This document shows, one piece after another, positions 53,540 through 60,593 of a DNA stretch of 64,000 bases. Numbering within the stretch: position 1 is the stretch's first letter; each line of letters begins with the position of its first letter. The stretch lies in the sequence record NC_054913.1; one strand, 5' to 3'. The position numbers were made by a program, and so were the translations under genes. The notes under the pieces were generated by a model. That model was not told where the DNA came from, ran no database searches, and was given only the letters and a program-made list of their open reading frames with translations. This DNA is from Escherichia phage F2.

Positions 53540-53830
53540 ATGATTCTTTATGCGAAAGTATCATCCATTGAAAATGGATATAAATATGATCAAGAAGCAG
53601 CTAAAGCCTTGATTGATGATTATGGCATTTTAACATGTTTTGAAGTTGAAAAGGTTTACATCGACCGTTCGTCTTCACAGGTTAAATTACTCTGTGAAGA
53701 TGATAAATTTAACACAGTTAACTTTGATTTCTTTATTGAAACAGAAAAAGGTCCTCTTGAATATGATATTTTCAAGAATCCTTTGAAATTACGTTGCATT
53801 GAATATAATTACATTAATACGGTACGGTGA
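53540..53830 (+). CDS. hypothetical protein, 96 aa
   Basis: Tightly packed ORF; no motif recognised. Confidence 0.5.
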   Translation: MILYAKVSSIENGYKYDQEAAKALIDDYGILTCFEVEKVYIDRSSSQVKLLCEDDKFNTVNFDFFIETEKGPLEYDIFKNPLKLRCIEYNYINTVR

Positions 53831-54646: not shown

Positions 54647-54656
54647 ATAATTGGTA

Positions 54657-55322
54657 ATGAGCATTTGTAAACATTGTAATATGGAATTTGATATTTCTAA
54701 TAAACCTAAAGGATGGATGGCTAACCACACTAGATGGTGTAAATCCAACCCTAAATTGGAATTGTATAAAGAAAGTTCTAAATCAGCCATTGCAGCAATG
54801 AATAAAGCACGTATAGCTTCAGGTAATTTAAACCAGTATGTTGTATCTAAAAAGACTGGTGTCCCTGTAGTAATTTCGGAAGAGACTAGACAAAAATTGT
54901 CAGCCGCTTCATTAGGTAGAGAACACTCTGAGGAATCTAGAATAAAAATATCTAATGCTCGGAAAAAATGGTTGAATGAAAACCCTGATAAACATCCTTG
55001 GAAGAAAAATACAAAATTTAAATCTGTGCCTTGTGAATTTTTGAAATCTAAATTAATAGAAAACGGAATTTCATTTATTGAAGAATACCAACCGGTTAAA
55101 AACCGAGCGTATTGCACGGATATTGCTTTAATAGATAAAAAGATTATTATTGAAGTTAATGGAAACCAACATTACTCCAATCCTAAGAAAAAGATTTTGG
55201 CCCCTTATTATAAAGAACGCCATGATATTATAAAATCATTAGGATGGGAAATATATGAACTTCATTATGCTGAAGTTTATAAAGAAGATATTGTAAATAA
55301 TTTAATTGCCTCTATAGTGTAA
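54657..55322 (+). CDS. free-standing endonuclease, non-GIY-YIG: N-terminal Cys/His cluster, NUMOD3-like repeats, C-terminal PD-(D/E)xK-like (Vsr/DUF559-type) domain; 221 aa
   Basis: CKHC...HTRWC; repeats SEETRQKLSAASLG and SEESRIKISNARKKW; C-terminal IIIEVNGNQH...KERHDIIKSLGWEIYEL; lies between tRNA-Asn and tRNA-Arg, last 5 codons overlap tRNA-Arg. Confidence 0.6.
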   Translation: MSICKHCNMEFDISNKPKGWMANHTRWCKSNPKLELYKESSKSAIAAMNKARIASGNLNQYVVSKKTGVPVVISEETRQKLSAASLGREHSEESRIKISNARKKWLNENPDKHPWKKNTKFKSVPCEFLKSKLIENGISFIEEYQPVKNRAYCTDIALIDKKIIIEVNGNQHYSNPKKKILAPYYKERHDIIKSLGWEIYELHYAEVYKEDIVNNLIASIV

Positions 55323-56611: not shown

Positions 56612-57142
56612 ATGTCTCTTTATACTGAACTGAATGAAACTTCCGAAAAATCTTTTGATGGTATTTTATCAATAATGCAAAAGCAGGTATTAGAACAGCT
56701 TAGTGAAGCCGCAAGCAACGGACATAAGGCTTGTCGAATCCCAAGCCCACATCGTCGCCTGTATGAACGCCCTCTTATTAATTGGCTAGAAAGCGAAGGT
56801 CTTACGGTTAAGATTTGTCCTGCCAAATTTGATGTTCCACGTATTCTTAATATTTACTGGGATAAACCGATTGAGAAACCGATTGAGAAAAGTGACCCTT
56901 GGGTTGTTAATGTAAAAACATGTGATAATGGATGCTCACTTGAGGTGTCTGCTGTAATTAAAGGCACTCACGGTGAAAAATCGTGGGGTTGGCCTGGTAA
57001 AGATAAAGAAATCGTGTTAAGTGTAAAAGCTACTAGTATTAGTACTCCTATAGCTAAAAGCATTATTAATGCTGCTATCGATGAAGCTGAACGAATTTGT
57101 AAAATTAAAAATAGTTTACATCTCTCAAATAATGGGATATAA
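56612..57142 (+). CDS. hypothetical protein with a PIEKPIEK tandem repeat, 176 aa
   Basis: ORF with GAGGAAA RBS; 12-bp unit ccgattgagaaa repeated twice at 56867-56890. Confidence 0.55.
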   Translation: MSLYTELNETSEKSFDGILSIMQKQVLEQLSEAASNGHKACRIPSPHRRLYERPLINWLESEGLTVKICPAKFDVPRILNIYWDKPIEKPIEKSDPWVVNVKTCDNGCSLEVSAVIKGTHGEKSWGWPGKDKEIVLSVKATSISTPIAKSIINAAIDEAERICKIKNSLHLSNNGI

Positions 57143-57143
57143 T
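57114..57143 (+). promoter_or_regulatory. early sigma70 promoter with consensus -10
   Basis: gtttac at 57114-57119, 18 nt, tataat at 57138-57143; lies within the 3' end of the preceding ORF. Confidence 0.6.
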
Positions 57144-57185: not shown

Positions 57186-57779
57186 ATGAACACACTGAAG
57201 AAAATTGTTGAGTTTATTCGCACTAAACTTGGTTCTGCTATGGCTAAAAATCTATCTGTCGAAGAACAGTATACTGCTGCAGCAGCAAAACTTCTTGATA
57301 AAATTAAAGACCTAAAAACTGCTTCTGTTAAATCTATTAATGAAGAAAAACGTATTCGTGAACTTGTTATCGAAAAGAATCGACAAGCCGAATCAAAAGA
57401 GCGTGAAATTCGCAAACTTCTTTCCGAAGGTCAAGATGTAACAATGCATGCTAAGCTCGGTTTACTATATCGTCGAACAGCTGAGCAGTTGACTACTAAA
57501 GCTGATGGTTATGCTGAAATGCGAATTGAAATCGCCAAGAAAGTAGTTGAGTTAGATGATGCTCGCCAAGAACTTGCAGTTAAATTGGAATATATCCGTG
57601 AAACTCGTGCGGCAAATGCCCTTGGAATTAGTACTGCTGATGATGTAGTTGAAATCGCAGCACTGACTAAGGTTGATATTGAAGATACTCTTGCTCGAGT
57701 TGAAACCTTTAACGGTAATATTTCCGGGGTTGAAACTACCTCTGCCGATGTTCAGGAATACATTAATTCTCTGAAATAA
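57186..57779 (+). CDS. coiled-coil protein, possibly PspA/IM30-like, 197 aa
   Basis: Long charged heptad-rich helices resembling PspA architecture; assignment by pattern only. Confidence 0.45.
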
Positions 57780-57783
57780 TGAT

Positions 57784-57801
57784 AAGGGGCTTCGGCCCCT
57801 T
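57784..57801 (+). terminator. UUCG-loop hairpin (terminator or RNA-stabilising element)
   Basis: aaggggc-ttcg-gcccctt; no clear U-tract. Confidence 0.4.
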
Positions 57802-57820
57802 ATACTTGGAGTAAATAGGA

Positions 57821-58435
57821 ATGAAAATGAAAATGCAAAGTGATTTCAATTCAATGTTTGAAGAGTTCCAAAGACAGGTTGATGTTCCAGACCAATTACT
57901 AAATGCTCTTAAACGTATGGCAGAAGGACGTAATTACTATTGGGGGTCTTCATATGAAACTGATGAAAGTCTTTCTGGAAGATTTTCTAGAGGTAAAAAG
58001 TCTTTAATACGTCCTGGAATACTCATTAACAGTATTGAATCAATTCATTCATTGACGTGTGATTTTGATGTTGAATTTACTGATTTCATTTCTCCTGAAT
58101 GGACGGTTTGTTATTTAAACGACGATTATGATTATCTTGGCGTTTATAGTTTAAGTGATGCATGGTTTAAACGTAATTTACAAAAGTCAAATTTGTTCTA
58201 TATTGATACTACGGTAAAATTTCAGGGAAAGAAATATTTCTTTACTCTTATAGTTGATTCTGAAACAAAATATGAAAATAAGCGTATTCTTAGTAAAAAG
58301 AATATCTTGACTATTGTTGATGATCTTTTTGATAAATTCGTGGAAAATCCTAATTTTGAAAGCGATTTATTACTAGAAAAATTTGTTAAGGAATGTAGAG
58401 AATATGTCAAAGCCATCACTATACCTTCCAAGTAA
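57821..58435 (+). CDS. hypothetical protein sharing a C-terminal FVKECRE tail with the downstream paralogs, 204 aa
   Basis: ORF; C-terminal codons contain the RBS of the next gene. Confidence 0.55.
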   Translation: MKMKMQSDFNSMFEEFQRQVDVPDQLLNALKRMAEGRNYYWGSSYETDESLSGRFSRGKKSLIRPGILINSIESIHSLTCDFDVEFTDFISPEWTVCYLNDDYDYLGVYSLSDAWFKRNLQKSNLFYIDTTVKFQGKKYFFTLIVDSETKYENKRILSKKNILTIVDDLFDKFVENPNFESDLLLEKFVKECREYVKAITIPSK

Positions 58436-58796
58436 ACCCGTGAAGTATGAACTAAAGCGTCAGCTAATTCCTACTGATGTATTAATAGGTCCTGTGGTAG
58501 CTGTATCATTTGTGATTCTGCTGATTGCTGGAATGGTTATAGACGTTATGACTGATATTGAATCTGGTGCAATATTTGGAGCAACACTAATTCTTCCATT
58601 AATAATTCCGCTTTTATTAGTACCTGTAAATTGGGTAGGATACTGGTATCAAGGAAGACATTATCGTAAACGCGTACGTGAGTGGAAAGCCCAGTGCAAA
58701 AAGATTAAAAAAGAACATCAGCTTAAACTTGCTGCGTATGAATTTGATGAAATTATGAAATTTGTTAAGGAATCACGATGCAAAAGCCAAAACTAA
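58404..58796 (+). CDS. small two-transmembrane protein, paralog 1 of 3, 130 aa
   Basis: ATG at 58404 with AAGGAA RBS inside the upstream gene; two hydrophobic helices, basic region, tail FVKESRCK. Confidence 0.6.
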   Translation: MSKPSLYLPSKPVKYELKRQLIPTDVLIGPVVAVSFVILLIAGMVIDVMTDIESGAIFGATLILPLIIPLLLVPVNWVGYWYQGRHYRKRVREWKAQCKKIKKEHQLKLAAYEFDEIMKFVKESRCKSQN

Positions 58797-59140
58797 ATAA
58801 AGTCAAATATTCGTTTCCTGAGGCACTATTAATTCTTGCTGTATCAGTATTTACAGCTCTTGCGGGTAGTCTTATTGGATTAATGATTGACTGTATTATT
58901 TTAAACATCGATGGTTCAGCAATTATAACAGAGGTTTGGAGTGAACTTCGTTTTACTATAGCGATTTCATTATTTTCATTCTTTGGTACCATGTTATATT
59001 TTCATTATGATAATTTTAAAATAAATTGGCAAAGAAAAAAGGATTACAAAATACAATTAAAAGAATATAATAACTACATGTCTTATATTGAAAATGAATC
59101 AATGAAAGAGTTTGTAAGTGATTGTAGGAAAATCAGATGA
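58778..59140 (+). CDS. small two-transmembrane protein, paralog 2 of 3, 120 aa
   Basis: N-terminus MQKPKL similar to paralog 1 (MSKPSL); two hydrophobic helices; tail FVSDCRKIR. Confidence 0.6.
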   Translation: MQKPKLNKVKYSFPEALLILAVSVFTALAGSLIGLMIDCIILNIDGSAIITEVWSELRFTIAISLFSFFGTMLYFHYDNFKINWQRKKDYKIQLKEYNNYMSYIENESMKEFVSDCRKIR

Positions 59141-59625
59141 TTTTAAAAACTCGCTGGTATGATTTAGATGATGGGGATGATGGCATTCCAGTTGATAGAG
59201 TTGACTGGAATGGCTGTTCCGAAGATATGAAAAATTTGCTGATTAGGGAGTTTAGAATGGGATATCAACCAGTTAAGCCATCTACTGCAACAGATGATAA
59301 ATTCGTGTGTATTCATAATGGTCGCGCTAAATTAACGAACGCTGATTGGTTCACAGATAAGATTATGATTCTGTGGTATATTATTAGTCTTCCTGTGACA
59401 TCATTCGTATTTTACTTTTTTATAAAAAATCCAATGGACAGAATAGGAGATTGGATTCTTTTAACCATACTTGTTAATATTTTTACAGCAGCAATATTAT
59501 CTGGGATATGGTACACGTTCATTGAAATGCCATGGCGGCTACGCAGACAACAAAAGATTTTTGATGAAAAGAAATATACTCAAAATTTAAATAACTTTAT
59601 CACTGAATGCAGGAAATTAAAATGA
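59137..59625 (+). CDS. small two-transmembrane protein, paralog 3 of 3, 162 aa
   Basis: ATGA overlap; two hydrophobic helices; tail FITECRKLK whose codons tgc agg aaa supply the nudE RBS. Confidence 0.6.
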   Translation: MILKTRWYDLDDGDDGIPVDRVDWNGCSEDMKNLLIREFRMGYQPVKPSTATDDKFVCIHNGRAKLTNADWFTDKIMILWYIISLPVTSFVFYFFIKNPMDRIGDWILLTILVNIFTAAILSGIWYTFIEMPWRLRRQQKIFDEKKYTQNLNNFITECRKLK

Positions 59626-60062
59626 AAACACTATCAGCTGGTATTATCTTTATGACCGAAGATAAAGATTTATTCATGGGACGGGTTACTGGTTCTCGTA
59701 AGCCTGGAATGATGGCACATCGCTGGGATATCCCAAAGGGCCGCGTAGAAAATTCTGATTTAAGCGCACTAGATGCAGCACGAAGAGAATGTTTAGAAGA
59801 GACTGGTTTTAGCAATTATAATCCAGACCTTCTAGAAGACCTAGGTGTATTTAAATATTCTAGTAATAAAGACTTACAGTTATTTTATTATACGATTCCA
59901 GTAGAGCATGAGATGTTTAGAAATTGCCATTGCGAGTCTTATTTTGAAAATAAAGATGGCGTTATGATTCCAGAGATGGACGCTTTTGCTCTTATTCCTC
60001 GTACTCAGTGGCAATATGTGATGGGTCCTTCACTTTACCGAATAATGAACAACCTCTTTTAA
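59622..60062 (+). CDS. nudE: NudE Nudix hydrolase (e.1), 146 aa
   Basis: Nudix box GRVENSDLSALDAARRECLEETGF; directly upstream of lysozyme as in T4. Confidence 0.85.
   Translation: MKTLSAGIIFMTEDKDLFMGRVTGSRKPGMMAHRWDIPKGRVENSDLSALDAARRECLEETGFSNYNPDLLEDLGVFKYSSNKDLQLFYYTIPVEHEMFRNCHCESYFENKDGVMIPEMDAFALIPRTQWQYVMGPSLYRIMNNLF

Positions 60063-60593
<531 letters not shown>

Follow-up and report, generated by a model that had tools for sequence, protein, structure and literature searches.

In bacteriophage T4, gp43, gp33 and gp55 share C-terminal tails that bind the sliding clamp gp45. In Vipp1 and CHMP1B, the helix known as α5C binds the hairpin tip of the next subunit. T4 further encodes the holin t as well as the Imm and Sp proteins. 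Here we describe a short peptide tail common to the products of four consecutive genes, e.5, e.4, e.3 and e.2, of Escherichia phage F2 (sequence record NC_054913.1), of which a stretch of 64,000 nucleotides (nt), hereafter the window, was analysed. The window belongs to a Tequatrovirus: its positions 57700-60100 share 99.9% identity with Escherichia phage vB_EcoM_IME537 and >90% with about 500 genomes of the T4 type. Position and sequence identify the four genes as T4 e.5, e.4, e.3 and e.2, which lie between e.6 and nudE (e.1)/e, and their order and overlaps are the same as in T4. As judged from the sequence comparisons reported below, the tail is a peptide-level motif that is conserved independently of the position of the Shine-Dalgarno (SD) sequence of the following gene, and it is a candidate docking handle for the proteins that carry it. 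The features of the array are the following (aa, amino acids; TM, transmembrane):

57821 to 58435, + strand: e.5, a soluble protein of 204 aa without TM segment (phrog_2607; precomputed assignment PF26876).
58367 to 58402, + strand: predicted tail helix of e.5, LLLEKFVKECRE, with its FVKECR core at 58382-58399; it holds the SD AAGGAA (58388-58393) for e.4.
58404 to 58796, + strand: e.4, a two-TM protein of 130 aa (TM 31-49 and 57-75), predicted N-in/C-in (phrog_2604; precomputed assignment PF26873).
58755 to 58781, + strand: tail of e.4, MKFVKESRC; it holds the SD AAGGAA (58767-58772) for e.3.
58778 to 59140, + strand: e.3, a two-TM paralogue of e.4 of 120 aa (phrog_2330).
59105 to 59131, + strand: tail of e.3, KEFVSDCRK; its Arg codon AGG and the next codon AAA form the SD (59126-59131) for e.2.
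59137 to 59625, + strand: e.2, 162 aa, with a soluble N-terminal part of 75 aa, TM 78-96 and 106-124, a basic segment and the tail (phrog_2203; precomputed assignment PF26896).
59590 to 59616, + strand: tail of e.2, NNFITECRK; its Arg codon AGG and the next codon AAA form the SD (59611-59616) for nudE.

An alternative start codon of e.5, ATG 57827, corresponds to the start in T4. The overlaps e.5/e.4, e.4/e.3, e.3/e.2 and e.2/nudE span 32, 19, 4 and 4 nt, respectively, the last two being ATGA start/stop overlaps (59137-59140 and 59622-59625), and the start codon of e.3 (ATG, 58778) falls within the Arg-Cys codons of the e.4 tail. As such overlaps are the usual signature of coupling, e.5 to e.2 and nudE are probably translationally coupled.

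An earlier note, made from the sequence without database searches, had read the ends EKFVKECRE (e.5), MKFVKESRC (e.4), KEFVSDCRK (e.3) and NNFITECRK (e.2) as one shared C-terminal tail. All four are present as quoted, at the ends of the four proteins; in e.5, the motif lies 11 residues ahead of the stop codon. The consensus of the four ends is Φ-x-x-F-[IV]-x-[ED]-[C/S]-R, and in its broader form the motif reads Φ-x-x-[FW]-[IVL]-x-x-[C or hydrophobic]-[RK]. The motif is largely specific to the array: F[VIL].[ED][CS]R has five matches in the six frames of the window, four of which are the e.5-e.2 tails, and in the related complete genome KNP1 (165.8 kb) four open reading frames (ORFs) of at least 50 aa match the strict form F[IVL]xxC[RK], three of them through the e.5, e.3 and e.2 tails. 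A position-specific scoring matrix (PSSM) was built from 118 unique tails of related phages and scored on 344 ORFs. The four proteins of the array occupy ranks 1 to 4 (e.5, 25.0 bits; e.2, 24.2; e.3, 19.8; e.4, 12.7), the next ORF reaching 11.6 bits. The conserved positions Φ(-3), F(0), I/V(+1), C(+4) and R/K(+5) map to one face of an α-helix. Elsewhere in the window, a 96-aa ORF (53540-53830, + strand) ends in IEYNYINTVR, a relaxed tail at the extreme C-terminus, and the terminal sequence YNYINMVR is kept in two Mosigvirus-like loci (L020 and L053); this may be due to chance or reveal a distant member of the tail set.

We then asked how far the tail extends beyond Tequatrovirus. A single-sequence homologue search with e.4 retrieved near-identical Tequatrovirus proteins only; e.3 is present in roughly 650 genomes. 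Because e.6 is highly conserved, it was chosen as the anchor for fetching the regions downstream of it in 11 other named genera (Mosigvirus, Gaprivervirus, Kanagawavirus, Marfavirus, Jiaodavirus, Winklervirus, Moonvirus, Tegunavirus, Biquartavirus, Roskildevirus and Pseudotevenvirus) and in 39 IMG/VR loci; the 50 loci compared come from at least 12 genera of the Straboviridae. In 50 of the 51 usable loci, the gene that immediately follows e.6 codes for a soluble protein bearing the strict motif close to its C-terminus, the sole exception being a fragmented e.5. The members of this e.5 family measure 95 to 306 aa and share 11-47% identity; in an alignment of 12 of them, from 12 genera, the only invariant columns are M1, F188 and C192, and R193 is conserved at ≥90%. 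Similarly, the e.4 family has F120 and R125 as invariant residues, and the e.3 family F112 and C116. Downstream of e.5, each locus encodes between 0 and about 6 TM proteins with the tail, which in some cases are split into two clusters, so that copy number does differ between phages, and several genera encode further small soluble proteins with the same ending. Examples from other genera include two-TM proteins that finish with FIKECRK, FIKEVRRK, WIRSCRK or FLKEIRK directly before the stop codon, and soluble proteins with LESFIQMCRG ahead of additional residues or with a terminal LDMFIAKCRAK. Genomes with e.6 and e.5 only (Aeromonas phages, RB43) keep the motif as well. Finally, the two-TM profile matched 17 cluster representatives among 1.84 billion. 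The 14 small matches listed (69-162 aa) are T4-type, and every one read that reaches the C-terminus keeps the tail; the remaining three are long repetitive proteins and probably false positives. This restriction to T4-type phages indicates that the tail is an old, lineage-restricted feature of the e.6-e.2 gene block, and not a peculiarity of the window.

The proteins that share the tail are not all of one kind. The array had been described in the earlier note as diverged tandem copies of small two-TM proteins. Two hydrophobic helices, a basic segment and the tail are indeed found in e.4, e.3 and e.2, whereas e.5 is soluble and has no hydrophobic segment. In the three membrane proteins the N- and C-termini are rich in Lys/Arg and the loop is acidic, a charge pattern which, by the positive-inside rule, indicates N-in/C-in hairpins with a cytoplasmic tail; the tail helix would lie about 40-55 residues past TM2. 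As for the tandem array, e.4 and e.3 align by BLASTP across their full length (E 0.002), their family profiles align by hhalign over a 43-column cytoplasmic region (96.9%, E 1.6e-10), and the common N-terminus (MSKPSL in e.4, MQKPKL in e.3) is recovered as M-x-K-P in both families. On these alignments e.4 and e.3 are true paralogues. With e.2 and e.5, hhalign aligned the tail only, over 12-14 residues (e.4/e.2, E 6.8e-6; e.3/e.2, E 5e-4; e.5 against the two-TM proteins, E 2.6e-4), and these comparisons of family profiles found no homology of e.2 or e.5 to e.4/e.3 beyond it. The array is real and diverged, and e.2 and e.5 share only the tail with e.4 and e.3. The layout of e.2 (two TM segments, basic stretch, tail) matches that of e.4 and e.3 behind its additional 75 residues, a likeness from which ancestry is not demonstrable. 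We also observed a 25-nt imperfect direct repeat (80% identity) between the e.5 segment encoding DKFVEN (58330-58354) and the segment encoding DKFVCI in the N-terminal part of e.2 (59295-59319), possibly a trace of shared ancestry or recombination.

The codons of the tail also carry the SD of the next gene, as had been noticed from the sequence. The SD is AAGGAA, within Lys-Glu codons, in e.5 and e.4, and AGGA, within Arg-Lys codons, in e.3 (59126-59129) and e.2 (59611-59614); the spacings to the ATG of e.4, e.3, e.2 and nudE are 10, 5, 7 and 7 nt, respectively. The picture of a uniform SD has however to be corrected, as the SD falls in different motif codons in different genes. The best SD of the gene that follows was located for 192 distinct tailed gene ends: it lies past the motif in 98 of them, within motif codon 6 in 34 and within codons 3-5 in 27, and 28 have none. 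Members of the e.5 family usually have two middle residues other than Lys-Glu in the motif, and the SD is found elsewhere; for both e.6 and the e.5 family it is downstream of the motif. The codons of the conserved residues are used at frequencies near genomic usage (Cys, TGT 48 and TGC 44; Phe, TTT 85 and TTC 41). The motif Arg is encoded by AGA/AGG in 45 of the 67 tails with the next ATG at ≤12 nt, versus 16 of 47 when the ATG is farther (genomic background about 30%; Fisher p = 6e-4, an optimistic value since the tail instances are related by descent and these counts overstate their independence). The junctions do not fold better as RNA than shuffled sequences (z from -0.07 to 0.86), an Rfam search gave no family match, and a single 16-mer, AAATTTGTTAAGGAAT, shared by e.5 and e.4, is the only exact DNA repeat among the four tails. 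Since the SD position shifts, synonymous codons vary, no RNA fold is apparent and DNA repeats are few, selection appears to act on the peptide. The locus is a case of dual coding, in which the peptide is conserved and the SD is fitted in by codon choice; the overlap with the ribosome-binding site (RBS) is real but secondary.

Two explanations at the nucleotide level were weighed against this conclusion. Were the tail kept only as the RBS or coupling signal of the next gene, with a peptide devoid of role, one would understand why each tail of the window holds the next SD 5-10 nt from the ATG and why the Arg codon is skewed to AGR when the ATG is close. Yet an SD constrains about 4-6 nt, whereas F, I/V, C and R are conserved over six codons, and the peptide is unchanged when the SD shifts between codons 3-4 and codon 6. 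The tail is moreover kept where it cannot serve as RBS, as in the e.5 family and the 98 gene ends with a downstream SD, some tailed genes have no close next gene, and the Phe and Cys codons vary freely. The possibility, foreseen in the earlier note, that the RBS constraint explains the whole similarity is therefore not borne out, and we consider this explanation hardly credible. The same note had also suggested that the tail is a modular junction, that is, a DNA sequence kept for recombination that adds, deletes or swaps cassettes. Rearrangements do occur at the locus. In one locus (L015), e.2 is precisely missing and the body of e.3 is joined, with the break inside the tail, exactly at the e.2-type junction TGCAGGAAATTAAAATG before nudE (L015 6094-6456); by annotation, T2 and RB32 lack e.2 too. 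Phage vB_EcoM-UFV05 encodes a natural in-frame chimera, e.4(1-30)/e.2(86-162) (P0099), an e.4 variant (P0155) has lost both TM segments, and the 16-mer and the variable copy number are in line with such exchanges. However, this support is anecdotal: beyond the 16-mer no DNA repeat links the tails, the amino acids persist although the codons change from one tail or genus to another, the crossover of the chimera is in TM1 and hence outside the tail, and the motif is retained in genomes with a single tailed gene (Aeromonas phages, RB43). As the tails have only one 16-mer in common at the DNA level, recombination would be a by-product of tail conservation and not its cause, and a junction kept for recombination is very unlikely. 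Two loci were also seen to carry split e.5 genes (L015 5136-5751 and L044 5156-5824).

What, then, might the peptide do? Our preferred reading, which we hold to be fairly probable from the sequence data, is that e.5 and the membrane hairpins have the tail in common as a handle for docking or assembly, which joins them in one complex at the cytoplasmic face. The block composed of e.6, e.5 and a variable number of e.4-like membrane proteins is an old one across T4-like phages, its genes residing on one mRNA and being translationally coupled. The tail would form a C-terminal amphipathic α-helix, cytoplasmic in the two-TM proteins, and would tie the soluble e.5 and the hairpins e.4, e.3 and e.2 to a common partner or to each other, so that a single complex would arise at the inner membrane early in infection. 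As e.6 is always adjacent, it would be the most economical choice of partner. Because genomes with only e.6 and e.5 keep the motif, the partner cannot be the two-TM proteins alone, and must be e.5 itself, e.6 or a host protein. The two-TM genes would have multiplied via tandem duplication (e.4, e.3), fusion (e.2) and loss. Because the genes abut or overlap, the next SD has to sit in the tail codons, where it would be accommodated by codon choice (AAG GAA for Lys-Glu, AGR for Arg) with the peptide unchanged.

Several observations weigh against the docking handle. The helical state of the tail is weakly supported: the AlphaFold2 (AF2) model of e.5 places a low-confidence helix at residues 182-198 in a poor overall model (predicted local distance difference test, pLDDT, 57.5), with which a Foldseek search of the PDB gave a best E of 0.07, a meaningless value. 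The hydrophobic moment of the tail is not significantly higher than that of shuffled sequences, 0.08-0.53 of which reach it. Cys is replaced by S, I, V or M in e.4-type proteins, so Cys chemistry is not universal, and the relatedness of the tail instances, noted above for the Fisher test, also counts here. Lastly, e.2 is interrupted in the T4 reference (L001, NC_000866) and absent in some relatives, and the region is hence dispensable in the laboratory; any function would therefore be conditional. Relative to the window, that reference has lost 1 nt in an A-run and gained 1 nt about 100 nt farther on, which accounts for the annotation of e.2 as 102 aa instead of the intact 162 aa; these indels represent a laboratory-strain lesion or an old sequencing error, and the downstream part, including the tail, is still readable.

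Two further explanations accept the peptide and assign it another role. The tails could bind a host factor (a chaperone, an AAA+ protease for which they would be a degron or recruitment signal, or PspA/PspF), the array then providing decoys or adaptors. This would fit with the persistence of the motif in genomes limited to e.6 and e.5 and with the basic ends of many two-TM tails (CRK or VRRK before the stop codon), which may resemble C-terminal recognition signals; in e.5, however, the motif is internal, 5-30 residues from the end, unlike terminal degrons, and we judge a host target unlikely. The second explanation, raised in the earlier note, is that the two-TM proteins are holin/antiholin-like or Imm/Sp-like superinfection-exclusion proteins, with the tail as their regulatory cytoplasmic domain. 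Small N-in/C-in two-TM proteins with a charged cytoplasmic C-terminus would suit this role, their variable copy number is typical of host-interaction genes, and in the window the array does sit upstream of nudE and the lysozyme gene e. Nevertheless, searches of Pfam (E up to 1), PHROGs (E up to 0.01), NCBIfam and PADLOC returned no holin, antiholin, Imm/Sp or defence-related match for e.5 to e.2; Pfam, NCBIfam and PADLOC yielded no family for any of the four, and the PspC domain (PF04024) was absent from their Pfam matches at E up to 1. The array adjoins e, via nudE, only in Tequatrovirus. It is also close to nudE and e in a Jiaodavirus locus (L008), with extra genes between, and in the other genera 2-4 kb of unrelated genes separate it from e or the locus has no e. 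The same tail is carried by soluble proteins, among them e.5, and T4 is already known to have its own holin (t), Imm and Sp. Membership in these families was consequently not substantiated, and this explanation is quite improbable.

The docking handle draws attention to e.6 as a candidate partner. The genes and elements that flank the array are the following:

57186 to 57779, + strand: e.6, a conserved helical protein of 197 aa, directly upstream of e.5, with a tail-like end (relaxed form) and a tentative PspA/Vipp1/ESCRT-III-like hairpin.
57782 to 57803, + strand: GC-rich stem-loop with the core GGGGCTTCGGCCCC, between e.6 and e.5.
59622 to 60062, + strand: nudE (e.1), Nudix hydrolase (Pfam NUDIX, E 9.6e-14), translationally coupled to e.2 and without tail.
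60099 to 60593, + strand: e, T4-type lysozyme, given for context only.

At its C-terminus e.6 carries the tail in relaxed form; this end reads [DE]-[VIL]-x-[ED]-Y-[IL]-x-[SAG]-L-K and is directly followed by the stop codon. The AF2 single-sequence model of e.6 is a long helical hairpin (H2-80 and H86-145, pLDDT >90) followed by shorter helices of low confidence (H151-161, H165-179 and H186-196). When this model was compared with the PDB by Foldseek, Vipp1 occupied ranks 1-9 (best E 3.5e-4), followed by CHMP1B, CdvB and PspA. At the sequence level, the e.6 profile is collinear with Vipp1 over residues 7-142 with weak E values (0.2-0.4 against PDB sequences), and hhalign against 78 PspA/Vipp1 sequences gave E 0.009 (local) and 0.001 (global) with a probability of 5-8%; Pfam PspA_IM30 had no match in 12 e.6 members. 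With this mixed evidence, we put the membership of e.6 in the ESCRT-III superfamily at somewhat less than an even chance; if true, it would mean a viral membrane-remodelling system in the best-studied phage. The global profile alignment sets the end of e.6 on PspA ADDAISEQLAQLK. From this alignment comes a speculative model in which the tails would plug into e.6 in the manner of α5C. However, α5C of PspA and Vipp1 was scored by the tail PSSM at about 0 or below, not above background, and the plug idea therefore stays a lead; the PSSM is itself uninformative on e.6, PspA and Vipp1, because its training regular expression excluded Tyr and the scores were about 0. In its full form, the model would make e.6 a phage membrane remodeller of the PspA/Vipp1/ESCRT-III type, the tails of e.5 to e.2 and of the further tailed proteins of other genera mimicking α5C. 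On the inner membrane of the host, e.6 would polymerise, with the two-TM proteins as membrane anchors or nucleators of the polymer and e.5 as its soluble cap or regulator. We regard this elaborate version as doubtful. Were it correct, the block would be a viral Psp-like or ESCRT-like membrane-maintenance module with a variable adaptor set.

Further observations concern the surroundings of the array. A sigma-70-type promoter with a near-consensus TTTACA-17-TATAAT lies just upstream of e.6 (57115-57143); promoter/stem-loop cassettes occur at module borders of T4-type genomes, and this promoter and the stem-loop at 57782-57803 are reminiscent of them. Farther upstream, ahead of e.8/e.7, a 223-aa ORF beginning with MVMSICKHCNMEFDISNKPKGW (54651-55322, + strand) looks like a homing-endonuclease-type insertion. 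In most genera other than Tequatrovirus, a second tandem family comes after the array; it comprises 3-6 soluble proteins of only 65-100 aa, all ending in G-x-W-[VI]-S-S-S-x-x-C or W-x-x-S-S-C directly before a stop codon, which often makes the next SD (TGC TAA GGA AA). This family was located at L003 3357-4151, L004 3351-4619, L006 5710-6776, L007 5567-6616 and L010 6066-6835, and has in its vicinity a conserved protein (about 310 aa) that contains the domains DUF7277 and DUF7275. Public records label e.4 a 'sulfurtransferase' and e.6 a 'host specificity protein'; no family model backs either name, and both are probably propagated mis-annotations. Databases file e.5, e.4, e.3 and e.2 as separate families of unknown function, and the records examined annotate neither the tail that crosses these families, nor its occurrence in other families and genera, nor the SD overlay. 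A literature search by gene name, in which subscription journals were thinly covered, gave no specific paper on these four genes.

A large part of the T4 genome is unexplained, the e.2-e.6 block included, and the genes of this block were earlier filed as separate families. One short motif unites a soluble protein, several membrane families and further small proteins across a dozen genera, always beside e.6. A list of ORFans thereby becomes a single testable module, for which F, C and R offer a handle for mutagenesis and for the fishing of partners. The locus is also a clean natural case of dual coding, with the peptide and the RBS on the same bases and the conflict settled by codon choice, and annotators should not take such conservation for an RNA signal.

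How does the array compare with the described systems? Alike in concept are the gp45-binding tails of T4, in which unrelated phage proteins dock on one partner through a common C-terminal motif; the e.5-e.2 motif differs from them in sequence, does not extend beyond one gene cluster and has membrane proteins among its carriers. With the α5C helix of ESCRT-III/Vipp1 and the docking helices of the MIM type, the likeness is a short C-terminal amphipathic helix in which a hydrophobic residue is followed by Lys/Arg. This resemblance is limited to the heptad pattern, and the tails of the array sit on non-ESCRT proteins. Class II holins and the Imm and Sp proteins of T4 resemble e.4, e.3 and e.2 in that they are small phage proteins of the inner membrane, have two TM segments and carry charged ends in the cytoplasm, but the array has no detectable homology to them and is linked across genera to e.6 and e.5 and not to lysis genes. 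Finally, the phage-shock system, with PspA and PspB/PspC, is similar in architecture only: a tentative PspA/Vipp1-like hairpin, e.6, is encoded beside small inner-membrane proteins, and by analogy the cytoplasmic helices of the membrane proteins of the array could recruit e.6.

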